IMG/VR virus record: IMGVR_UViG_3300045996_001613
Location: 1-64,000 of that record
Strand: one strand, 5' to 3'
From: a virus
DNA: 64,000 nt
This document shows, in pieces, positions 15,682-57,337 of this stretch. The position numbers and the translations under genes are program-made. The first letter of the stretch is position 1, and each line of letters opens with the position of its first letter. The notes beneath the pieces were generated by a model that saw only the letters and a list, made by a program, of their open reading frames with translations, was not told where the DNA came from and made no database searches.

Positions 15682-15704
15682 GTCAATAGTATACACGAAA
15701 ATAG

Positions 15705-15779
15705 TCAGGAGGGGGGAGGCTCGAACTCCCTCATTGTGGGCCACAACCACAAGCTCTAACCCGGTAAGCTACCTCCTGA
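15705..15779 (-). tRNA. tRNA-His (GUG), atypical
   Basis: cloverleaf; anticodon loop TT-GTG-GC; TTCGAG T-loop. Confidence 0.8.
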
Positions 15780-15782
15780 AAG

Positions 15783-15854
15783 TGGTCGGAGGTAGGTTTG
15801 AACTACCGTCTCCGGGATTTCACTCCGGCGCTATACCTCCTCAGCTACCCGACC
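15783..15854 (-). tRNA. tRNA-Phe (GAA)
   Basis: GGTCGGG/TCCGACC acceptor stem; loop GT-GAA-AT; TTCAAAC T-loop. Confidence 0.8.
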
Positions 15855-18566: not shown

Positions 18567-18747
18567 GGATACATCGTACCACATCTTACTATTGACCTGA
18601 ACGTGGATTTTTGGGGAATAAATTTGAAGGGTAGAGAGGGGATTTTCCGACCTTGCAACTTTTGCTACCCCACCCATACCCAGGCTCATGTAACCGCCGG
18701 CACATTCTCGAGATGTAACACGCGTATCAATTCCGTATATTGCGAAT

Positions 18748-18765
18748 TTGTGAACGGATTCACAA
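18748..18765. promoter_or_regulatory. Rex/CRP-type operator 1
   Basis: TTGTGAACGGATTCACAA. Confidence 0.7.
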
Positions 18766-18950
18766 CGGGCACCCTTGAAATGTGCGAGTCTCACGGTATG
18801 AACGAAATCAGCCAACAGAAAGGCACAGAAATTGCAAGCAAGCTCGCGGCGCACAATACCGCGGGTATATCGCCGCGTATCGCGGATTTCTCAGGATCTG
18901 GCAGGACTAACCATGTACGTACTACGTACGCGGGAGAAGGGAATATAGAC

Positions 18951-19607
18951 GTGTCTCAGGCAAGGCTTACTTTGGAGCTTGACTCCAAGGGTATCGCGAA
19001 AACTCCTGTTAAGTCTATTGATATAGAAGCATTTAAGTCTAACCTCATGAGCACATTCCGCAGTGCTACTAAGCAAGATGTATTGGATGGTCTTGCATGG
19101 TATGACACGGCTCTTGATTTCGTTAAGGCTCTTGCTGCTGGTAGCTCATATAGCATAGAGCAATGTGCTGCTGTAGTAGCAGCATGCAGCATGGGTACCA
19201 AGTGGGACGCTAATAAGACTATCGCAATTAAGGCTTTAGCAGAGCATAAAGCTAATAAGCCTATAACCGCGGGATGGGCGCACAAGAACAATATGTGTCA
19301 AGACATATTGGATGGTAAGCCTTGGGACGATACCCTTAAGGGTAAGACCGTGGACAAGGGTCACGGCAACAAGATCTATAACTTCTGCCTGAACATCTTG
19401 GGCGATGATAAGGCTTTCACTGCTGATATGTGGATGGCAAGGGCTGCATACGCAGACTGCATCAATGCTGATAAGGCAAGCGCCCCAAGCGGTAAGGTAC
19501 ATGATGCCATCTGTGAGGCAGGCAAGGAATGCGCCGATATCGTGGGTCTCGCACCCCGCAAATTTCAGGCCGCGGTGTGGGTAAGGGTAAGGGGTGAGGC
19601 TTATTAA
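18951..19607 (+). CDS. helical DNA-glycosylase-like phage protein (DUF7178-like; start uncertain)
   Basis: GLAWY, AAVVAACS...W..N, KI.NF..NI, T.D.WM.R, QAAVW. Confidence 0.6.
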   Translation: MSQARLTLELDSKGIAKTPVKSIDIEAFKSNLMSTFRSATKQDVLDGLAWYDTALDFVKALAAGSSYSIEQCAAVVAACSMGTKWDANKTIAIKALAEHKANKPITAGWAHKNNMCQDILDGKPWDDTLKGKTVDKGHGNKIYNFCLNILGDDKAFTADMWMARAAYADCINADKASAPSGKVHDAICEAGKECADIVGLAPRKFQAAVWVRVRGEAY

Positions 19608-19680: not shown

Positions 19681-22324
19681 ATGGTTATTGAGTTCTTTAT
19701 AACGGATGATACAGAAGGGATCGAGTACGGTCCGTTCGGCACCCCGCAAGAGGCTTATGATATAGATGTATCAATGGATATGTATAAGCCTGCAGTAGTA
19801 CGCCGGATAGATTGTGACTATCGTTCCGATGTTGAGGTAGACCGGGATGGGAATGATAAGCCTAGCTTAGACGCCCACTACGATAGGCTTAACGCTCGCG
19901 ATAGGGCTACGTACGGTATGAGCCCGCAGCAGATAGAGCGACACGACAGTATGTAACAAATGTATCCAGGGTGTAGCGTGCACCACGGCGTACGGGGCGA
20001 ACCCACTACACCCACTAGTAATAAGGGCTACGAGGTCAGGAGATAAGGGTATGTCCGCCACAACAGTCGAGGTCAAGAAGTACGGTGCATGCACCATCCG
20101 TATCAAGGTTACAGTGGTACGATGATAGCCTACAGGATCTATGAAGAAAGGGACGGGCAACTGTACCCACTGCAGCACAAGACACGCACCCCGGTACCCT
20201 TGAACGAATGGATGCAAGCAGACGTAAAGATGGCGCGTGATGGGTCAGGCAACAGATGGTACAAGGCGGGCTTCCACTCTGTACCTCGTATCGAAGATGC
20301 CGAGGCTTATATGCAGCATTTCAGGTCAGCCCGTCGCGAGAGGTTAAGGGTCGTCGAGGTCGAGGTTAGCAACACATGGAGCAAGGACCACTCGCCTGCC
20401 CCTGTGATCCTGTCGGAGTACATGTTGGTTAAGGGTATCGTAACTACGCAAAACACAGATTTCAATCCGAGGTCTCAGAGCTGTGATCTCGGGGAGGAGG
20501 CATAGCATGCTAGCGCAGGACGTAAAGCCTTTGGAGCGTGAGCTTCTGGACCACCTGTATCAGGTGTTGCTTGAAGCAGAGAACGATGAGCTACCGAACC
20601 CAGACCGGATACGCAAGGCACGCGCCGACTATGCCGCATGCGAGGAATGGTATGCAAGGAAGTACAGCGTAGACATGGAGGTTGCATCGTAATGCATGTT
20701 GCGAAGTACGAGATCAAGGCAGACGGGCGCAGGGTCGGCGTCGCGGATAAGCCTGATCAGGCCAGCGACGCGAGGAAGAAGTATCGCAACTATGGCTACA
20801 AGGTGGAGGTCAAGAAGTTCAGAGTGTGAACGAATTCACAGCGGGGGATAAGGGTAGGGCTTAGACTAGTGTCAACGGTAACGGAACGAACGGAGGACAG
20901 GATGCAGTACCTAGACCGGAACTACAGCAGCAAGGCCGCAGTCAAGAGGGCTCTGGCCGAGGGTGCCGAGATCAGGGTCAACGTGGTTGAGCCGCAGATC
21001 TCGGGCCGCAGCGTCAAGAGCAAGAAGTTCGGCACCGTGACCGAGCACACCGTCGCGGGTCCATGGTTTCCCCAGCCGCATAGCTGGTACGGCAACGTCC
21101 GCGTCAACGACGCGGGCCTCGTGGTCGAGGTCAAGTAATGGCGCAGACCGACGAGACCAAGGCGATCAAGGCAAAGGTACGGGCCGCGAAGCAGAATCTG
21201 CAGAAGGCAGAGAGGCTGATCCTCGACGCGGAAAAGGGCGAGGTCAGCGTGCACATCGGTAGCCTACTGGCCGCGGGATACGCGATGATGGCAACACACG
21301 ACGCGCAGGACGCGGAGCGCAACGCTCGCGGACTGCACGCGGCGACGGAGGACAGCTACCACGAGGAGGTCTCGGCGTAACGCCGGGACCTCTCTACCCG
21401 AAGGGAGCAGCAATGCCAGCCATCACCCCGGAGCAGATAGACCAGAAGTTCGGCGGACAGTACTCCGAGAACTACACCTTAGGCGTACGCCATGGGGTCA
21501 AGGCCGAGACCAGCGTAGTGCACGCGACCATCGGTCGCGCAGAGGACAACCTGTTCGCCACGACCGAGGCGCAGTGGGACTACCTCGACGGTTGGGTTCA
21601 GGGGCGCGTCGAGTGGGACGCGGCGGTTGAGGGCGATCAGGTCTACGAGCAGTATGCTCGGATGTTCACGGACGGCAAGTTCGACGTGACAGACATGGTG
21701 CGATTCTTCCTCGCGGACCTCGCGACGGAGGACGTGTACATCGCGATACCCGCGGCAGGCGACCCGTTCGCGGCTGCTCTGCGCGAGGCCGAGTGCGATA
21801 TGCTGGCTCTGTACCTCGACGACAAAATCACTGCCGACCAGTACCTCTATGCGAGGGGAGCGTAAGATGGAGCAGAAGTACGTCGTAGCCGAGCAAGACC
21901 CGAGCCTCAGCCCGAGCCGTGAACTCGGGCTGTCCTCCTCCGGTGTACGGATGGACCTGTACTCAGCCCTGTCGACGGCTGCGGAAGCAGCCCGCAGGTA
22001 CGGCACAGCACATGAGGTCCGCGTCGTGACCCGCGAGTATGACTCCGGCACGTTCGCGGTCGGGGCCAGCCGGTACACCGTCGACCCCTCGGAGGTCAGC
22101 GCATGAGCATGACTCTGACGGACGTACGCAACGCGGTACCAGCCATGACCGACGGCATGCTGGTGGAGCTATACTGCCAGTACAGCACCTTTGCCGACCG
22201 TAACCCTGACTCCGACGAGGGGCGATACAAGGCGAAAATGGAGATCGTAGACGCGGAGTCTAAGAAGAGGCACCGTCCACACGTGGACGCGAAGAAGGCG
22301 ACGAAGTGGGGGTATTGGAAGTGA
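19681..22324 (+). other. run of small hypothetical early genes (19681-19956, 20122-20505, 20507-20692, 20692-20829, 20902-21138, 21138-21380, 21413-21865, 21867-22106, 22103-22324)
   Basis: co-oriented, RBS-bearing, often translationally coupled ORFs. Confidence 0.65.
20825..20840. promoter_or_regulatory. Rex/CRP-type operator 2
   Basis: TGTGAACGAATTCACA. Confidence 0.7.
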
Positions 22325-23049
22325 ACATCGCAGTGCTATTCGACGGCGCAGGGCTCGCACGACTCGGGCTAGAGCAGGCGGGGCATACGTGCACCGGATA
22401 CGAGCTAGATCCGTGGAAGCACTACCTCTCGCAGTTCGTGGGCTCGGGGAATTCCGTGCTCGCGGACGTACGCGACGTGGACCTGTCCCCCTACGATGCA
22501 GTGTGGGCATCGCCCCCGTGCCAGTGGCACAGCAGCGCACGCACGCAAGGGGACCCGGTCTCGGGCTTCGCGACCGATCTCCTAGAGTGGTCTCTGAACC
22601 TCGACGTGGGTGTCCTGTGGGTGGAGAACATCATGAGCCAGACTGCCAGCCTCAATACGTGGGGCACCAAGTACAACGCGGCTCAGTTCCTATCCGTCCC
22701 CATCCAGAATCGCAACCGCATCGTCGGCGGTCACTATCGCGAGCCGTTTGTGTACGCGAGCTACCGGCGTACGTTCGCGGGGATCTGCCCCTGCATCACG
22801 GCCAGCGAGTACAAGGGCTGCGCCTCCGACACGCGCAGGGCGTCGCGCTACTACGGGCGTCGCCTGACTGTCGGGGAGTGTGCCGACCATCAGGGGCTCA
22901 CCATTCCCCCCGAGTGGCACACCGTACCCGAGGGATTCACGCCGGGACGTTGGAGGCAGAATCTCTACGAGGCGATTGGTAACGGGGTCCCCGTCTACAT
23001 GGCGCGTGGCTTCGGTGAGATGTACCCGGCGAAATCCAGGGGATTGTAA
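22321..23049 (+). CDS. DNA (cytosine-5) methyltransferase, short
   Basis: LFDGAG, SPPCQ, ENI, QNRNR, RRLT..EC...QG, IGNGV. Confidence 0.9.
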   Translation: MNIAVLFDGAGLARLGLEQAGHTCTGYELDPWKHYLSQFVGSGNSVLADVRDVDLSPYDAVWASPPCQWHSSARTQGDPVSGFATDLLEWSLNLDVGVLWVENIMSQTASLNTWGTKYNAAQFLSVPIQNRNRIVGGHYREPFVYASYRRTFAGICPCITASEYKGCASDTRRASRYYGRRLTVGECADHQGLTIPPEWHTVPEGFTPGRWRQNLYEAIGNGVPVYMARGFGEMYPAKSRGL

Positions 23050-23070
23050 CTGCCGGCACAAGCTCGAGAT

Positions 23071-23086
23071 TGTGAACGAATTCACA
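23071..23086. promoter_or_regulatory. Rex/CRP-type operator 3
   Basis: TGTGAACGAATTCACA upstream of a GATAAT -10 box. Confidence 0.7.
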
Positions 23087-23159
23087 GACAACGGTAGCCG
23101 AGTAGGAGATAATGCGGGAGCAATGAGAAGGACAACGACAAGGGGAGAGACATGTGAAC

Positions 23160-23466
23160 TCAGAGGGGCGAGCCTGACGGTCCTGACCCCAACAGGCGAG
23201 ACGGTCGGAGTACCAGACCGGCGGGGATGTGGGCGCGAGCCCGTGCATGAAAGAGAGCACACCCAGCGAGGGCCGCTGGTAAGGAGGCTCACATCCCCTG
23301 ATGGCGAGGCAGATACGGGCGCAGTGGTGCGAACGGCTCATGGGGCTGATCACCCCGGCAAGCCTAGTAGCACGGTGAAAATCCCACGGCTAACTGCCGT
23401 GCCGATGGCGACAATGGGGCTGATCACCCCGGAGTCGACCGGGAAAGCTGCGCCGGTATCTGCCCC
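23160..23466 (+). ncRNA. putative large structured RNA with twin UGAUCA-loop hairpins
   Basis: long helices 23223-34/23287-98 and 23308-24/23448-64; 19-nt repeat at 23340 and 23414. Confidence 0.65.
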
Positions 23467-23486
23467 GACCACGAATGGAGGAGCAC

Positions 23487-23669
23487 ATGAGACCGCCAGC
23501 ACGACATACGGTGGACGGGGTGCACAAGCGCACCGGGATGATAGTCACGGTGAAGCTGGGCTTCGCCTCTCACCGGGATGCGCACAACTACATAACCAAG
23601 CACCTGACCGAACTGCACGTCAGGGGAATAGACCCGGTGCACGTCGGGACGGACAGGACGGGCGCGTAA
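23487..23669 (+). CDS. small hypothetical protein inside ncRNA cluster
   Basis: GGAGGAG RBS; 60 aa. Confidence 0.55.
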   Translation: MRPPARHTVDGVHKRTGMIVTVKLGFASHRDAHNYITKHLTELHVRGIDPVHVGTDRTGA

Positions 23670-23738
23670 TGGGTTCGACGGGTGCAACGGGCGCGAGCGC
23701 CCAACACCCGGAGGAGAGTTCGATTCTCTCCGCGTCCA
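23660..23738 (+). ncRNA. mini-tmRNA (tRNA-like domain only)
   Basis: G3.U70 and A73 acceptor stem, stemless D-loop UAAUGGGUUCGA, helix 2a, 3-nt linker, T-arm. Confidence 0.8.
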
Positions 23739-23741
23739 CTA

Positions 23742-23872
23742 CGAGTCCCGGCATGGTACGGGAGAGACACGCTGAAACACCACGCACGGCCACTGCGGTA
23801 GTCATGACCCGCATGCTTTCAAAGTGTCTCTGGTTGAATATACGCGACTCTCCCACACCATGCCGGGGCTCG
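23742..23872 (+). ncRNA. putative structured RNA
   Basis: CGAGTCCCGGCATGGT pairs with ACCATGCCGGGGCTCG; nested helices. Confidence 0.55.
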
Positions 23873-23913
23873 GCTGTAGTCAACACCGACCGGGAGGTCT
23901 GACCGTGGACACT

Positions 23914-24750
23914 ATGGACCTGCACAACTGGCGTGAATGGAGCGCAGAGCAGTTCGCCCTCGACGCGGAGGCCGAGGTCTCCGAGGACGAGATAGCCGCG
24001 AGCTACGCGGCCACGAACCCCCACGAGGAGGTAGAGTAATGACCGGAGTACACGGCCCACTGGTCGTCCGCGAGGTCTGGATCGTCGGGCCAGTGATGTC
24101 GGAGTTCGTCGGCTTCATGAACCGCGTAAATTCCCGCATCAAGGTCGGCAGGATAGCCGAGCTAAATGGGTGGGAGGTATGGGATCGCGAGATAAACGAG
24201 ACACACGACACCTTTTGGCTGAGGGAGGCATCATGACCACCACGAGCATCGCGAAGGCCCGCCAACAACTCAAGCGGCAGTACCGGAAGATATCGACCGG
24301 CGTGCTCTATGGATGGATGGCCGTCTACCTCGTCGAGGACAACGAGTACATGTGCACCACAATCCGCGAGGTACTGCGGGAGAGGGGCGAGCAGATATGA
24401 TGCACCTAGAGTGGCATCTGGACAAGCTGAACGACGCGGCTAACGAACTAGCCCACAACGCCAAGCACCGCGAACTGACCGAGGAGGAGATCGTCGAGTT
24501 CAAGCAGGAGTTCACCGACCAGATCCGCAACCTGCAGGACGAGGTATCGTCCCTCGGAGGACACCTGACCGACGCGGTAAACGAACTGTACGAAATGCTG
24601 CCGAAGTGCGAACAGTGCGACGAGATCCTGACCGAGGACAACATCGCGGACACGGCAGACCTACGAGACGCGAAGGTCTGCGCCGACTGCCAGTACGACA
24701 TGGACCCCATGAACGACGTGAACTACGTCGGTCACCCGATGCACTACTAA
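23914..24750 (+). other. four small hypothetical genes (23914-24039, 24039-24236, 24233-24400, 24397-24750; last has Zn finger)
   Basis: coupled ORFs with RBS. Confidence 0.6.
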
Positions 24751-25553: not shown

Positions 25554-26132
25554 ATGATTGATCCGATGAACGTCACCGACTTCGACCGCAGCGATGCAGA
25601 GCTAGAGGAGTTCTTTCTCTTCGCTGTGCTGGTCGCGAACAAGAACTCCGATAGGATGGCTCGGGCTCTGGATTTTCTGCTCCGGCAGGGTGAGCCGGGA
25701 GACTCCCCCTTTGACACGATCAGGCGCATGGTACTCGACGGCTCGATGCCCCTCCGCCTGATTCAGGCGAAGACCGGAGAGTATGGTCGACGCCTCAAGA
25801 CCCTGACCGAGGTCGCGACCGGCATGGTGCCAAACCTCCGCAATGCGGAGCCGGAGGACCTAGAGCAGATCCACGGCGTCGGGCTCAAGACGGCACGATT
25901 CTTCCTCATGCACAGCAGGCGCAACAGCCAGTACGCCGCGATAGACACTCACATCCTCAAGTACATGAGGGAGTTCTATGGGCACAAAGTTCCCAACCGT
26001 ACGCCCACCAACCGGGAGGAGTACCGGGAGCTAGAGGAATGGTTTGTCTTGCAGTGCGCCATCGAGGGCGTCACCCCCGCGGCGAAGGACCTAGAGGTAT
26101 GGAAGCTATACAGTGGGAGAGTAAGCGCATGA
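25554..26132 (+). CDS. HhH-GPD DNA glycosylase/AP lyase
   Basis: IHGVGLKTARFFL, AAIDTHILKYM, DL.VW. Confidence 0.8.
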   Translation: MIDPMNVTDFDRSDAELEEFFLFAVLVANKNSDRMARALDFLLRQGEPGDSPFDTIRRMVLDGSMPLRLIQAKTGEYGRRLKTLTEVATGMVPNLRNAEPEDLEQIHGVGLKTARFFLMHSRRNSQYAAIDTHILKYMREFYGHKVPNRTPTNREEYRELEEWFVLQCAIEGVTPAAKDLEVWKLYSGRVSA

Positions 26133-40743: not shown

Positions 40744-41727
40744 ATGTCTAAACTCACACACCTAGACCTCTTCGCGGGTATCGCGGGGTTTACATATGGG
40801 TTTGAACGTGCTGGATTAGAGACCGTCGGGTTCTCCGAGATTGACAATTTGCCCAACAGGGTACTAGCTCGTCGATATCCGGGGATTCGCAACGAAGGAG
40901 ACATACATGGAATGGACGGCAGAGACTACCGAGGGGTCGACATCGTCACCTTCGGATCGCCGTGCCAAGACTTCTCACTGGCAGGAGAGCGCCGTGGACT
41001 TGACGGAGGTAAAAGCGGCATCCTACGCGAAGCCCTCCGAATCGTTCGCGACGCCCGACCACGACTCGCTATTTGGGAGAACGTCCCCGGTGCCCTTACC
41101 TCTAACAAGCGATGGGACTTTGCTGCCGTACTCGACGCGCTGGCTGAACTCGGGGCGATGGACATCGCGTGGCGAGTCTTGGACGCGCAATTCTTCGGAG
41201 TCCCCCAGCGTCGTAAGAGAGTCTTCCTTGTCGCGGATTTTGCAGGATTCCGTGCCGAGAAAATACTTTTTGACTCCAGTCGGAGCCCGCGGCCTACTCG
41301 CACGGTCCGAGCGCAGGGGCAAGAAATTGCCGGTACTCTTGGTGGAGGCTCTGGAGATCGCGGCTGGGCACCGGACACCGACCGAATGACGTTTATACCC
41401 GTGGGCACGCGCAACGGGGAGCAGAAGTTCATCGTGGAGGACGAGTCCCTACCCATCGCGATACACCTGACGCAGGACCCCATACATGGATACATTGCGC
41501 CGTGCATGTCCGCGGGAAATAAGCAGGGCTGCGCTACCATCGGGGTCTTCGACGGTGTAGGAGTGCGTCGACTCACGCCTCTGGAATGCGAGAGGCTGCA
41601 GGGCTTCCCGGATGGGTGGACCGATGTGGACGGGGCCAAGGACAATAAGAGATACAAAGCCCTCGGAAATGCTGTGTCTCCGGCGCAAACGACGTGGCTA
41701 GGGGAGCAGGTGGCACATGCCCTATAG
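40744..41727 (+). CDS. DNA (cytosine-5) methyltransferase
   Basis: DLFAGIAG, GSPCQDFS, ENV, PQRRKR, RLTPLECERLQGFP, LGNAV. Confidence 0.95.
   Translation: MSKLTHLDLFAGIAGFTYGFERAGLETVGFSEIDNLPNRVLARRYPGIRNEGDIHGMDGRDYRGVDIVTFGSPCQDFSLAGERRGLDGGKSGILREALRIVRDARPRLAIWENVPGALTSNKRWDFAAVLDALAELGAMDIAWRVLDAQFFGVPQRRKRVFLVADFAGFRAEKILFDSSRSPRPTRTVRAQGQEIAGTLGGGSGDRGWAPDTDRMTFIPVGTRNGEQKFIVEDESLPIAIHLTQDPIHGYIAPCMSAGNKQGCATIGVFDGVGVRRLTPLECERLQGFPDGWTDVDGAKDNKRYKALGNAVSPAQTTWLGEQVAHAL
40907..41389 (+). CDS. overprinted ORF inside the methyltransferase (EcoHK31I beta-like arrangement)
   Basis: GGAG RBS; SLS.IL...VP.KYFLTP....GLL.R..RRGK.LP motif. Confidence 0.6.
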   Translation: MEWTAETTEGSTSSPSDRRAKTSHWQESAVDLTEVKAASYAKPSESFATPDHDSLFGRTSPVPLPLTSDGTLLPYSTRWLNSGRWTSRGESWTRNSSESPSVVRESSLSRILQDSVPRKYFLTPVGARGLLARSERRGKKLPVLLVEALEIAAGHRTPTE

Positions 41728-43448: not shown

Positions 43449-44855
43449 TTGGCGTATAAGGCGATCATAGCGCGAGTCTACACCCGTCCACACCCCAACG
43501 CGGATCGCATCCAGCTTGGGGAGTGCCGCGGCTATCAGGTAATCGTGGGCAAGGATGTAGAGGACGGGACCCTCGGAGTCCTGTTCCCTCCGGACGGTCA
43601 GTTGTCCCACGAGTTCTGCCTTGCGAATGAATTGTATGCAAGGCACCCCGAGACCGGGGAGAAGATGAAGGGGTTCTTTGACAAGAACCGTAGGGTCAGG
43701 GCTCAGAAGTTTCGCGGAGAGAAGTCAGAGGCGTTCTGGACGGGTCTGGAGAGCATTTACAAGATGGCGGGACTGCGGGACTGGCGGAAGGATCTACCCG
43801 AGGGCAAGGAACTCGACGAGTACCTTGGCATGTCCCTATGTCAGAAGTACGTCACCCCCGCGACGCGCAGGGCTCAGGCCAACAAACAGCAGGCGGCTCG
43901 ACGTGAGCTACCGAATTTCCACAAGCACTTCGACACGGATCAGTTGAAGAGGGAGATAGACTACATACCCGAGGGGGCGTTGCTGTACTTCACGGAGAAG
44001 TTACATGGCACGTCTCAGCGCAGCGCATACCTCACGGTCGAGTCTGACCACAAGCTGCCGTGGTTGCAGAGGCTCGGGTTGTGGTTGAGCCGCATTCCTT
44101 TTGCACCCCCAACGCAAGACGAACACCTGCTAGGCACGCGCAACGTAGTCCTCGGTCGGTACGAGGGCAAGAGCTACTACGGATCTGAGGGGTTTCGGTA
44201 TCGGCACCATGACCGCATTAAGGACAAGCTGCACCTTGGAGAGACGGTGTACTACGAGGTTGTCGGGTTTACCGGGCCTATCTCAGGAGTGCCCGAAGAC
44301 CCCTTCCGGGCGTGGGACGCGAACGTCGCGCCGATCATGCCCGCGGTCAGCACCAAGGCGCTAAGAGACCATTGGGTGTCTTCTCCTGATCAGAAGGTTG
44401 CCGAAAGCGTCAAGGGCCGGTTTCCCGAGATGTACGGCGACACTATGTGGTACACGTACGGCAATTGGGAAGCGGACAGTCCTGCAGCCCCTCGTGCGAT
44501 GGGTGGATCGGAGATCTACGTCTACCGCATCACGCAGCAGAATGCGCAGGGCATCGTGCTCGACCTATCGTGGGAACAGGTGAAGGGACGGTGCGAGGAG
44601 TTGGGCGTCCCGCATGTGCCAGAACTGGCGGCACACAAGCACCACTGGAGAACGGAAGCCCTTATGGAACATGCGGAACAACTGGCCGAGGGACCCTCGA
44701 CACTCGACAGGACTCACATACGCGAAGGCGTATGTGTCCGTTGGGAGAAGGGAAAGAAGATAGGTATACTAAAGCACAAGTCATTCGAGTTTCTAGTGCT
44801 GGAGGGCGTGGTGAAGACCGACGAGAACTATGTAGACTTGGAGGAATCCTCGTGA
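43449..44855 (+). CDS. RNA ligase (DRB0094/Rnl5-like, N-terminal OB domain)
   Basis: HPNADRI, EKLHGT (motif I), YYEVVG, REGVCV, KHKS.EF. Confidence 0.85.
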   Translation: MAYKAIIARVYTRPHPNADRIQLGECRGYQVIVGKDVEDGTLGVLFPPDGQLSHEFCLANELYARHPETGEKMKGFFDKNRRVRAQKFRGEKSEAFWTGLESIYKMAGLRDWRKDLPEGKELDEYLGMSLCQKYVTPATRRAQANKQQAARRELPNFHKHFDTDQLKREIDYIPEGALLYFTEKLHGTSQRSAYLTVESDHKLPWLQRLGLWLSRIPFAPPTQDEHLLGTRNVVLGRYEGKSYYGSEGFRYRHHDRIKDKLHLGETVYYEVVGFTGPISGVPEDPFRAWDANVAPIMPAVSTKALRDHWVSSPDQKVAESVKGRFPEMYGDTMWYTYGNWEADSPAAPRAMGGSEIYVYRITQQNAQGIVLDLSWEQVKGRCEELGVPHVPELAAHKHHWRTEALMEHAEQLAEGPSTLDRTHIREGVCVRWEKGKKIGILKHKSFEFLVLEGVVKTDENYVDLEESS

Positions 44856-48428: not shown

Positions 48429-48591
48429 TCATTCCTCCCTTGTTCGGACAGTTGCTTTTCATTCATTTTACGCTGCTTGCGTGACTCTTTCCACGTCTTG
48501 TGTCTTTGGCGCATGGCAAACAGGGTACCCAGCGCAGTGATAGTACCCGTTATGCACAGATAGAATTCTACAGAAGTCATTAGATTCCTAG

Positions 48592-48663
48592 TTGGGTATG
48601 TGGGGGTCGAACCCACCATTTCCGAGTTCCGAACCCGGAGTCACACCCCGCGACTTATACCCA
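48592..48663 (-). tRNA. tRNA-Pro (CGG), atypical
   Basis: TGGGTAT/ATACCCA stem; loop TT-CGG-AA; TTCGACC T-loop. Confidence 0.75.
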
Positions 48664-48843
48664 GCGATTACTCTGAACGTATATCGCTAGGTCGTGGTCG
48701 ATGTGAGTTTCCTGTGGTGATGTCCATAGGCCCATGATAACACATGATACGGCGCAGGCTCCCTCGTAACACACCTACGCCCTGAAGAGGACTCCATACG
48801 GGGAGTCGAACCCCACGCCTCTCCACCCGGTCCACACCCTACG

Positions 48844-48915
48844 TCGCGGGCTTGGGAATCGAACCCAATATCTCCGGCGTATGAAACCGGCGAGTTACCA
48901 TTTCTCCTGCCCGCA
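48844..48915 (-). tRNA. tRNA-Met/Ile2 (CAU)
   Basis: cloverleaf; loop TT-CAT-AC; TTCGATT T-loop. Confidence 0.85.
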
Positions 48916-49156
48916 ATGTGCCGGACGCGCCCTCGCTTCCCGGCGTGGGTACCCCGCTATGTCCACCCTTCCGTTTTACGGCCAAGGGCACGGCACCCGT
49001 CCCAATTTAGGCCGGACTCACCCCTCTGCTATCCGACTTGGGCCACTCCTCTTCACCTCGCGTGACCTCGCCCAACCGCGGCCTCCCACCATACGTACCG
49101 CGTATTTACAGGAACCGTCGGATGTCCCGCAACCCGTCCCACAGTGGAGACTCGTG
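48916..49156 (-). ncRNA. putative structured RNA between tRNA-Asn and tRNA-Met
   Basis: nested helices; no credible ORF. Confidence 0.45.
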
Positions 49157-49229
49157 CTGCGACGGTAGGAATCGAACCTACAACCTTCGCCTTAACAGGG
49201 CGCTGCTCTGCCTGTTGAGCTACACCGCA
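49157..49229 (-). tRNA. tRNA-Asn (GUU)
   Basis: canonical cloverleaf; loop CT-GTT-AA. Confidence 0.9.
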
Positions 49230-54755: not shown

Positions 54756-56039
54756 CTACGCCTCGCCGCGAATACCAACCATTCCCACCAGATCGATGCC
54801 TTCCGCGGCAGGAGGAGTGCCTGAGGCGATTGGGGGTAGGGTCAGAGACGTAGTGCTGGTACGCATATTGGTGTTGTGGCCGGTTGCTGTTCCCGCGGTG
54901 ACCGTTTGCCAAATAATCTGTATTAACAGATATTCGTTGGCAAATACGACGTCACTAGCAGGCGTGAGTATTGCCGAGAGGTGAGTGTCCCCGTTCGTCT
55001 GTGCAGCGGGCCACGTTACTTGGTCGCTGACCACGTCGGACCCTATCTGTGTGGGGCTGGACCCGGTTGCGCTTGCACTTCTGAAAAAGCGCACTCTGAT
55101 CGAGTGGGCTCCGGCTGACGCGGCGGTCCCCTTGCCGTGCCATAGGAAGTGCCAAGGCTTACCCGCGGGCAACGTCTTACTCAGTGGACCCACCACGATG
55201 CAGTCTCCACGAGCCGCGTCAGGCAAGGATGAGGGTATCGTAGTTACGAAGGAGGCACGAGGGATGATGAAGTTAGAGTCCATTAGAGCGTATCTGGGAA
55301 CCGGCGTGCTGTTGCCGTAGTTAAATCCGGTCCCTCCTCCCGCCGAGTCTATCGGACTGTCGTCAGACGTCGAATGGTGGTTGTTTACTCCCGACTCTAC
55401 TAATGGGGTAGCCAACCACTTGCGATCTATTGTCTCGGCTTCGGTGTCGGGATGCAGTATGACCGTAAACGCGGACCATGCAGATGAAGTGATGGTTATA
55501 CTGGAGTCTCCACACAGCCCCTCGGAGGCTAGGTTCTCAGAAGCTATCTGGCAGGACCTCACGGCACCATTCTGCTCCTGATGCACCGTGCCCGTCGCGG
55601 GGTCGCCCATAGCGTTAACTGAGTTGCACGCCCATCCCCGTACGAGAAGCGAATTTGCCGCGTAGCTGTACGTGCCGGGTGCTGTGGCCGTTGTGCTGTT
55701 TGCATTTCCCGTTTTGGGCCTAAAGTTTGCAATGGCTCGTGTCACGTGGCAGTTTTGAAAGGCCCCCGCGACCCAATTACCTACAGTGGCAGCGCTAATG
55801 GTAAAGCTCCAACTGGTCTCTCCGGCCCCAGCTTTACCCCACAGTGCGTAAAAGTTGTTGTTGCCGACGTTCTGCGCTCGTACTGAGGCCCATCCCGTCG
55901 GTTGCACTGTGACAAGAGCAGCGCTGTCCAGTATCAGGAAGGCGACAATCCAGTCCCCCTCTTGTGCACCCGGTACGCTGACAGCTTGGGTAGTAGAGGA
56001 GGCGTTAGACCCCTTGTTGGATGTCCGGAGGGACGGCAT
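54756..56039 (-). CDS. tail fibre/minor tail protein
   Basis: Thr/Ser/Ala/Gly-rich beta-sandwich pattern (GDWIVAF, PTGW). Confidence 0.65.
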   Translation of the reverse strand: MPSLRTSNKGSNASSTTQAVSVPGAQEGDWIVAFLILDSAALVTVQPTGWASVRAQNVGNNNFYALWGKAGAGETSWSFTISAATVGNWVAGAFQNCHVTRAIANFRPKTGNANSTTATAPGTYSYAANSLLVRGWACNSVNAMGDPATGTVHQEQNGAVRSCQIASENLASEGLCGDSSITITSSAWSAFTVILHPDTEAETIDRKWLATPLVESGVNNHHSTSDDSPIDSAGGGTGFNYGNSTPVPRYALMDSNFIIPRASFVTTIPSSLPDAARGDCIVVGPLSKTLPAGKPWHFLWHGKGTAASAGAHSIRVRFFRSASATGSSPTQIGSDVVSDQVTWPAAQTNGDTHLSAILTPASDVVFANEYLLIQIIWQTVTAGTATGHNTNMRTSTTSLTLPPIASGTPPAAEGIDLVGMVGIRGEA

Positions 56040-57337
56040 TACGCCTCTGTGACGCGGCAGGTGTTTCCGCGGCATGTAACCATCGAGTTCAGTATGGGCT
56101 GGAGCCAGGACTTAACCTGCTGGCCCTCTGCAGTATTGACAATGTTGGTCAACTCGTAGGGGTCCGCGTCGTCCCCGCCTATATCAAAGATCAGAATGGG
56201 CTCAGTTTTATTGGAGCGCTGAATGTAGGCGTACGCTTCGTTGGTTTGGTAGTCCATTGTACGGAGCATTTTCCAGCCTGATCCCGTAGATTCAATTAAC
56301 ACCTTGGTGCGCCAATCAGTAGGTACAACACCCGAGAAGGTGGGCACTAGGCTGCGCCCGTCCCAATCGGACCACGAGGCCCCTGCGAGGTCTGCAATGG
56401 TCGTAGGTATGTCTATGTGGGAGACTAGGGCAGGGCTCTTGACTCCCGCGGGAATCGTGGGACCCGTCGCGGTAAACGGAATCTTTACGGTTTCGTTCCA
56501 CCACTTATCTTTCTGGTACTGGTCGTGCTCGCCTAGCAGATAGCCGTTGTCGGCAACGTGTATTACGTAGGTGTTCTCCAGTTGTCCATTAGCCGCCAGA
56601 CTGGTGTAGATGCGGTCGATAGCCTCATCCAACTCCTGCACCTCCTCCAGCTTCCCTTCTTGTACCTGCTGCTGGGCCTCCCTCTCCGCGGGGCTCATCC
56701 CCGTCATGTTGGGGGTGATGGCTAAGGGAGTATCATCATGCAGGTGTTCGTACTCGGGCTCCGGCTTGTACGGGCTGTGAGGGCTTAGGTACGAAGCCGT
56801 GATAAAGAAGGGCTCGGGCCGGGTTGACTGCTGATTAAGAAACGACTCCACCCTGCTAGTGATAAGCTCAGAGCTATAGTGAGGCGGCTGGGCGAAGGTC
56901 CTAACTGTGCCAAACTCATTAAAGGTGTGAGACGGCTCGGTGTCGACAATCTTGTTTGCATGCACGAACCATGCACTCTGATCGTAGCCGGGGGGCAGGT
57001 CCAAGGGCATGTTGAAGTAACCGTTTTGGATCTTGCCAAAGTATCCCACTCGATACCCCATCGACTGCAACCGAGTGGCGGGAGTGTCGAGCAGTAGCCC
57101 CTTACTCTTTCCTGCAGAGTATCCGGTGTCCGTGTTGACTGTAACCCGGTGGGTGTGCTGGTGTTTGCCACAGATCATCGTCCATCGCGTCGGTGTGCAC
57201 AGAGGGGTCGAGCAAAACCCGTTATCGTAGTCTATGCCGCCGTCCACCATGTGATGAAACTTCTTGGGCATGACGTCGCGATGGTGGGTGTACTTCTTGG
57301 GATCATCGTCGGAAATCAACAGTACTATGTTGAACAT
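56039..57337 (-). CDS. sulfatase
   Basis: NIVLLISDD, CTPTR (CxPxR), GK, PHSP, DNG...GEH, K, DI.PT-like, DPYELTN. Confidence 0.92.
   Translation of the reverse strand: MFNIVLLISDDDPKKYTHHRDVMPKKFHHMVDGGIDYDNGFCSTPLCTPTRWTMICGKHQHTHRVTVNTDTGYSAGKSKGLLLDTPATRLQSMGYRVGYFGKIQNGYFNMPLDLPPGYDQSAWFVHANKIVDTEPSHTFNEFGTVRTFAQPPHYSSELITSRVESFLNQQSTRPEPFFITASYLSPHSPYKPEPEYEHLHDDTPLAITPNMTGMSPAEREAQQQVQEGKLEEVQELDEAIDRIYTSLAANGQLENTYVIHVADNGYLLGEHDQYQKDKWWNETVKIPFTATGPTIPAGVKSPALVSHIDIPTTIADLAGASWSDWDGRSLVPTFSGVVPTDWRTKVLIESTGSGWKMLRTMDYQTNEAYAYIQRSNKTEPILIFDIGGDDADPYELTNIVNTAEGQQVKSWLQPILNSMVTCRGNTCRVTEA

Follow-up and report, generated by a model that had tools for sequence, protein, structure and literature searches.

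A predicted tag-less tmRNA consisting of the tRNA-like domain alone in an uncultured soil phage, and its covarying relatives in other viral contigs

The window analyzed in this study is a stretch of 64,000 nucleotides from the virus record IMGVR_UViG_3300045996_001613. The record as a whole is 83,577 bp long with direct terminal repeats, belongs to an uncultured soil phage, and encodes an HK97-type capsid protein, a portal protein, DnaB, two C5 methylases, an RNA ligase and a sulfatase. No match in the GenBank phages exceeds about 33% identity for either the portal or the DnaB protein. Neither a tyrosine or serine recombinase nor SmpB is encoded in the record. Third-position GC content supports plus-strand genes on both sides of the locus of interest and displays no coding signal across 23640-23880, which places a 79-nt RNA gene in a gap of ~240 nt (table 1); the next gene downstream starts at ~23905. 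The 79-nt sequence agrees letter for letter with the one quoted in the original prediction, a sequence-only reading of the window which proposed a small tmRNA that has an intact tRNA-like domain (TLD) and no tag reading frame, and which is referred to here as the mini-tmRNA. Phage RNA repair enzymes usually counter host RNA-cleaving defences, and the presence of an RNA ligase is in keeping with additional interference in ribosome rescue by the phage.

Table 1. Features of the mini-tmRNA, its surroundings and selected genes of the phage (positions in the window).
Feature	Position	Strand	Evidence or remark
TLD-only (tag-less) tmRNA gene, CCA not encoded	23660..23738	+	79 nt; RF00023 match, fold
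Acceptor stem 5' strand, G1-G7, including G3.U70	23660..23666	+	Pairs with 23731-23737, 7/7 pairs
Stem-less D-loop UAAUGGGUUCGA, conserved GG and UUCGA	23667..23678	+	Aligned to the Rfam tmRNA consensus
Helix 2a	23679-23684 with 23705-23710	+	Encloses the 20-nt insert; RF00023 alignment and fold
Insert hairpin, 5 bp	23689-23693 with 23698-23702	+	Sits where full tmRNAs have the tag frame and pseudoknots
T-arm, 5-bp stem and 7-nt loop UUCGAUU	23714..23730	+	RF00023 alignment and fold
Acceptor stem 3' strand and discriminator A73 (23738)	23731..23738	+	Sequence; followed by the trailer CUACGA
60-aa ORF (64 aa from the ATG at 23475)	23487..23669	+	GGAGG before the ATG at 23487; GC3 0.74-0.84
Imperfect hairpin, 30-nt arms (83% complementary) separated by 71 nt	23742-23872	+	Starts 4 nt after the RNA
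C5 cytosine methylase genes	22306-23049, 40744-41727	+	Domain searches
RNA ligase gene	43449-44855	+	Pfam PF09414; phrog_968, E 5.3e-58
Sulfatase gene	56039-57337	-	Domain searches

When 23640-23900 is folded (z -3.29), the imperfect hairpin downstream of the mini-tmRNA persists, and one of its arm positions pairs as G.U only in the plus-strand RNA; the hairpin may serve in 3' processing, act like a terminator or constitute an RNA of its own. Upstream, a palindrome (TGTGAA-N4-TTCACA) is followed by CAGACA-17-GATAAT at 23071-23113 on the plus strand, the latter being the sole sigma-70-like match within 23000-24400, and by its sequence this stretch is a possible regulated promoter of the unit containing the mini-tmRNA. 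The following ~370 nt (23100-23470) carry a weak coding signal, an inverted repeat (23305-23324 with 23448-23467) and two occurrences of GGGGCTGATCACCCCGG, and may fold into a structured RNA ahead of the small ORF. The tRNA genes of the window lie at 15704-15854 and 48591-49229 (minus strand), and the tRNA-Pro gene ends in a trailer (CTAGGA) similar to that of the mini-tmRNA (CTACGA). A lone T-arm-like hairpin, GGGG-TTCGACT-CCCC, is located between tRNA-Met and tRNA-Pro (48790-48835, minus strand) at a place with no tRNA call, and may be the relic of a tRNA or some other piece with the shape of a tRNA. None of the five phage tRNA genes in the window encodes its CCA end, which makes the addition of CCA to the mini-tmRNA by the host plausible.

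Judged by sequence and predicted fold, the gene at 23660-23738 is a complete tmRNA tRNA-like domain without a tag frame, carried as a phage gene. The parts named in the original prediction are all present in the sequence: a seven-base-pair acceptor stem with G3.U70, the discriminator A73, a stem-less D-loop with UUCGA, helix 2a and a T-arm, together with the lack of an anticodon arm and of an encoded CCA (the 3' trailer begins with CUA). Two of its structural details were revised. The T-arm stands, and the three-nucleotide linker proposed between helix 2a and the T-arm is mostly a tandem G18.A53/A19.G52 extension of the helix, leaving a linker of a single nucleotide. The inner hairpin, described as 6 bp closed by a 2-nt loop, forms 5 bp around a loop of 4 nt in the computed fold. 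The tandem G.A pairs were assigned from the alignment to the Rfam consensus structure, in which GACGGGUG at the base of helix 2a is paired with CACCCGGA, so that G18 and A19 of the D-loop face G52 and A53 (23711-23712). The T-loop is of the GUUCGAUUC type on a 5-bp stem, as a tmRNA requires, and 25 nt precede the insert while 34 nt come after it. The fold has a minimum free energy of -38.6 kcal/mol (z -2.73; 3 of 200 shuffled sequences fold as well) and is retained inside 261 nt of context.

The remainder of a canonical tmRNA is absent. Only 20 nt separate the two strands of helix 2a, leaving no mRNA-like domain (resume codon, tag frame and stop), and pseudoknots PK1-PK4 are missing, the insert folding as a lone hairpin. 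A tag-like reading frame was found neither in the insert, nor in the flanks of the mini-tmRNA, nor in trans. The anticodon arm and the D-stem of a tRNA (RF00005) are likewise absent from the RNA. What the mini-tmRNA retains is precisely the portion of tmRNA to which SmpB, alanyl-tRNA synthetase (AlaRS) and EF-Tu bind.

A permissive search of 23500-23900 with the Rfam tmRNA model RF00023 returned 47.2 bits at 23660-23741 (E 9.4e-18), a borderline value relative to the gathering score of 47. The match spans model positions 1-374, with 20 nt in place of 312 central positions, which is the pattern that had been anticipated: both ends are matched and the middle is missing. Over the whole 83,577-bp record RF00023 gave a single match at the same place (55.7 bits, E 1.1e-22), and tmRNA is the best match of its clan at this site. 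The borderline score shows in the whole-window Rfam run at the gathering threshold, which reported five tRNAs only and missed the mini-tmRNA. ARAGORN likewise reported five tRNAs and no tmRNA in the window, with no call of any kind at the mini-tmRNA, as foreseen by the original prediction. Across the 44 loci with a mini-tmRNA assembled in this study (see below), ARAGORN made no call at the mini-tmRNA in 42 and a call of the wrong type in 2.

Searches for further members of the family in IMG/VR were based on sequence patterns and a covariance model. A loose pattern that fixes only the D-loop and T-loop motifs (with GGTTCGAC fixed) occurs in at least 115 IMG/VR stretches; most of the matches listed are not mini-tmRNAs and many look like the T-loops of neighbouring tRNA genes. 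A covariance model (R1) was built from six gap-free sequences, with the window sequence included and the RNA of Mycobacterium phage DS6A left out. Applied to 950,636 bases, R1 separated 13 matches of 45.7-92.7 bits from a next match at 34.4 bits, among the matches listed. The DS6A RNA scores 57.8 bits, and tRNAs reach at most 34.4 bits. The window mini-tmRNA scores 85.3 bits, a value that is not independent since its sequence is part of the seed; its independent support is the Rfam match.

A first alignment of 16 sequences (15 distinct) was taken from the loose pattern, among the matches listed, with the acceptor end left free. In the 15 distinct sequences, among the matches listed, 97.4% of the stem cells pair, compared with 67.2% (sd 2.1) in shuffled controls, of which 0 of 500 were as high, and 41-57% in slid controls. 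Fourteen of the 18 pairs change on both sides among these matches, and the pairs G1-C72, G2-C71 and G3.U70 are invariant in all 15 distinct sequences listed, an invariance that is informative because the pattern did not constrain the acceptor end. Acceptor pairs 4-7 covary, with changes on both sides and 100% pairing, as do all six pairs of helix 2a and four of the five stem pairs of the T-arm, where 100% of the cells are paired across the family. A stricter pattern that fixes GGGTTCGAC, the T-loop and TCCA yielded 38 IMG/VR loci, two of which (L126 and L140) fall below the R1 cut-off of E 1e-5; in the larger alignment the invariance of these three elements is forced by the pattern, and the size of the family is a lower bound. 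The larger set comprises at least 39 R1 matches from 41 sources, with 29 distinct sequences of 74-95 nt in which 98.1% of the stem cells are paired; both pair counts rest on model-fitted alignments, which favour the structure. The covariance-model search proposed by the original prediction revealed a covarying family in other viral contigs, to which the RNA of DS6A also belongs.

Members of the family come from contigs of 40-68% GC that have almost no genes in common with the window phage or with each other. No other member exceeds 67% identity to the window copy, whose inner hairpin is unlike the motif common in the family. As in the window record, SmpB is not encoded in five other large viral records that bear a mini-tmRNA. 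A search of bacterial genomes with the strict pattern gave 25 matches, of which 6 are real (at least 59 bits); the others score at most 39.5 bits or have no R1 match, and three of the rejected matches (L155, L163 and L166) resemble normal tRNAs whose anticodon is TGC. All five bacterial genomes that carry a mini-tmRNA also carry a full-length tmRNA. In one of the five, the mini-tmRNA and the host tmRNA have the same T-arm, and in the other four the two clearly differ. A blastn search of the GenBank phage collection with three types of mini-tmRNA retrieved only DS6A, a result that is no census, BLAST being weak for short RNAs.

Relatives of the window phage itself were sought at four levels, none of which gave a match: blastn of 23400-24000 against the GenBank phages, the protein encoded at 25554-26129 in IMG/VR, the protein encoded at 18603-19604 in metagenome contigs, and an RNA-specific pattern in metagenome contigs (0 matches). 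Soil metagenome contigs from three studies show 0 differences over the RNA, and one of them may be the source sample. The diverged pieces found in soil contigs all stem from the methylase gene of another organism; the methylase that these contigs carry has ~80% identity over 22772-23027, and its genomic surroundings differ. With no relatives of the phage found, the window copy gives no experimental handle.

The novelty implied by the original prediction is not supported, as a phage tmRNA of this kind has been in print since 2009/2014. An entry "Mycobacterium phage DS6A (TLD only)" is listed by Hudson, Lau and Williams 2014, citing Mao et al. 2009 (PMC4131195). The DS6A RNA (tmRNA Website tmID 11587) was located at NC_023744 28478-28557, between gp33 and gp34, where it is unannotated. 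It shares with the window RNA the seven-base-pair acceptor stem, G3.U70, A73, the stem-less D-loop, the capped helix 2a, the T-arm, a length of ~80 nt, the lack of an encoded CCA and even the 3' trailer CTACGA. Both RNAs are encoded between phage genes and belong to the same covariance-model family. The two sequences are, however, only 63% identical, the D-loop of DS6A (GGUGGUCGAC) and its inner hairpin are unlike those of the window, and the phages are unrelated, the window portal and DnaB having no GenBank phage match above the value given for them. Furthermore, the gene upstream of the DS6A RNA stops 10 nt before it, whereas the window ORF has its stop inside the RNA. In the open-access literature searched, DS6A is the only phage TLD-only tmRNA found and no broad family is described. 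The window RNA therefore belongs to a kind already published, as a new and very divergent member.

Three further systems can be compared with the window RNA. Full-length tmRNAs (RF00023; among phages, for example the ssrA of the mycobacteriophage Bxz1 group named in PMC4131195) match its tRNA-like domain end to end but also carry an mRNA-like domain, the resume codon, a tag frame and the pseudoknots. tmRNAs without a coding sequence (CDS-less) are described in PMC11915505 for the mitochondria of jakobids and oomycetes and for the plastids of Mallomonadaceae. These roughly match the tRNA-like domain and also lack a tag frame (~65 bp in the plastid cases), but according to that source they are the only tmRNA of the organelle and have a dedicated SmpB, whereas the phage mini-tmRNA would act beside a host tmRNA, which is kept in full in the five genomes tested. 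The closest match in boundaries is a laboratory construct: a TLD fragment of 25 residues from the 5' end and 34 from the 3' end, its halves joined by a small loop, binds SmpB in a Thermus thermophilus crystal (PDB 2CZJ; PMC3929946). The construct is man-made and has a UUCG loop, while the window RNA has a 20-nt hairpin cap and is known here from its sequence.

The mini-tmRNA locus is a real gene for a 79-base RNA and is probably functional. Based on the set of conserved parts and on the report for DS6A, it is moderately probable that this RNA is an alanylatable, SmpB-binding competitor of the host tmRNA that prevents tagging. In such a mechanism, the mini-tmRNA would be cut from an early-region transcript by host RNase P at the 5' end and by a 3' nuclease at the other, and a host enzyme would add CCA. 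It would then bind SmpB through the elbow formed by the D-loop and helix 2a, and AlaRS would charge it with alanine through G3.U70 and A73. The SmpB would have to be that of the host, as the record encodes none. The charged RNA would compete with the host tmRNA for SmpB and EF-Tu as well as for the vacant A site on stalled ribosomes. Since it has no resume codon and no tag frame, it would place no tag on proteins, those made from broken or processed messages would escape the degradation tag, and host trans-translation would be blunted during infection. Sequestration of SmpB, or entry into stalled ribosomes without tagging, has already been suggested for the DS6A RNA (PMC4131195, PMC11915505). 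The same two sources, citing Mao 2009, report that the DS6A RNA inhibits the E. coli tmRNA, and PMC4131195 gives this inhibition as independent of chargeability. In the family assembled here, the invariant alanine identity elements suggest from the sequence side that charging matters, and agree with a role that needs charging and entry into ribosomes no less well than with a simple titration of SmpB.

That conservation keeps alive a related reading, in which the RNA takes part in ribosome rescue. Alanyl-mini-tmRNA and SmpB would enter stalled ribosomes and accept the nascent chain, and a host factor, for instance peptidyl-tRNA hydrolase or a release factor of the ArfB type, would then release it. 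Ribosomes would be recycled and phage proteins made from truncated messages would survive with one (or a few) extra alanines, much as might happen with the CDS-less tmRNAs of mitochondria. This is a possible account, though a doubtful one. In its favour, G3.U70, A73 and the acceptor and T stems contacted by EF-Tu are invariant or strictly paired in all 15 distinct sequences among the matches listed, and titration of SmpB alone would need less than this conserved set. Fifteen of the 44 mini-tmRNAs lie within 200 nt of a tRNA gene, placed like working parts of translation, and several lie inside arrays of 10-24 tRNAs. Precedents exist as well: according to PMC3929946, which refers to Shimizu and Ueda 2006, the TLD.SmpB complex supports peptide-bond formation in vitro and makes polyalanine without mRNA, and according to PMC11915505 mitochondria keep CDS-less tmRNAs together with SmpB, CDS-less forms also occurring in some plastids. 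Yet the RNA offers no stop codon to end the reaction, no release factor gene adjoins any mini-tmRNA, and a search for a conserved partner gene among 45 loci found no ORF family within 4 kb that is common to more than three lineages. The sole experimental report, that on DS6A as related in citing papers, is one of inhibition. A function outside ribosome rescue, in which the tRNA-shaped RNA would act as bait for an RNA-targeting defence or as an alanyl donor for a non-ribosomal transferase, is unlikely. The RNA ligase of the phage hints at a contest with host RNA-cleaving defences, and SmpB-like domains are predicted in CoCoNuT defence systems (PMC11090510). Against this stand the absence of any defence or transferase gene linked to the RNA here or at the other loci and the fact that every conserved feature is one used by the known partners of tmRNA.

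The remaining explanation is that the sequence has no function at all and is either a piece of a captured ssrA gene undergoing decay or the remnant of an attachment site. An attachment site needs only the 3' part of ssrA, whereas both halves of the tRNA-like domain are present in the window RNA. It is true that ssrA is a frequent integration site of phages and that phages carry parts of the gene (PMC9004378). Against decay, the two halves covary across the family, with acceptor pairs 4-7 fully paired despite their changes, and the same deletion end-points (helix 2a plus a small cap) recur in contigs of 40-68% GC. The record, with its direct terminal repeats, encodes no integrase of either recombinase class. 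The random decay named in the original prediction as the result that would count against a working RNA was not found across the family; an integration-site remnant was rejected on the covarying stems and the absence of a tyrosine or serine recombinase, and a functionless fragment is very improbable.

Trans-translation is a near-universal quality-control system of bacteria, and a phage RNA that disables or re-routes it would be a compact tool of host takeover. The kind of RNA was known from one cultured phage; the window extends it to an unrelated phage from soil, with a copy that is very divergent. The census indicates that such RNAs are common in uncultured phage contigs, often beside tRNA genes and with the alanine identity elements kept, and this conservation bears on whether they soak up SmpB or actually enter ribosomes. 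The value of the window copy itself is mainly that of one more data point together with its unusual overlap with an ORF.

The 60-aa ORF upstream of the mini-tmRNA ends inside the RNA, its TAA stop (23667-23669) being positions 8-10 of the mini-tmRNA. The 64-aa form matched only itself among 5.8 billion proteins, and the 60-aa form belongs to no Pfam or PHROGs family. The best score in the ESM Atlas (0.85) is a lead only. An AF2 model of the product predicts a strand-strand-helix-strand arrangement (pLDDT 78.7), for which a Foldseek search with an E cut-off of 0.001 found nothing; its top-ranking entries (E ~0.5) are ribosomal, RNA-polymerase-binding and Dmd-like proteins of small size, and no meaning is read into them. 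If the mini-tmRNA is cut from a transcript that also includes the ORF, a cut by RNase P at 23660 would remove the stop codon of the ORF and thereby leave a non-stop mRNA that ends 7 nt before the stop. An arrangement with a non-stop message has a precedent in arfA (PMC10107115). By analogy, the ORF and the mini-tmRNA might form a self-sensing switch of the arfA type: while the host tmRNA is active the 60-aa product would be tagged and destroyed, and once tagging is blunted by the mini-tmRNA it would accumulate. If so, the phage would read out the state of host trans-translation and act on it. The entire basis of this proposal is the overlap, the coding signal of the ORF and the arfA precedent, and it is rather unlikely. 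Among the distinct family members, 8 of 34 have a same-strand frame of at least 50 codons that stops between -6 and +23 of the RNA. Some of these frames follow immediately after a tRNA gene, as in L034 and L141, and are unlikely to be genes, so that the overlap does not characterize the family.

Two minor observations were made at other loci. A 68-nt sequence at L089:2234-2301 (plus strand) has a tmRNA-type D-loop and T-arm together with G3-C70 and a discriminator T, scores 34.4 bits with R1, and may represent a tRNA-like RNA that lacks an anticodon and has a different identity. ARAGORN also identified suppressor-type tRNAs at three loci with a mini-tmRNA, with the anticodon CTA in L145 and TCA in L136 and L157, where read-through of stop codons may be linked with tampering of ribosome rescue.
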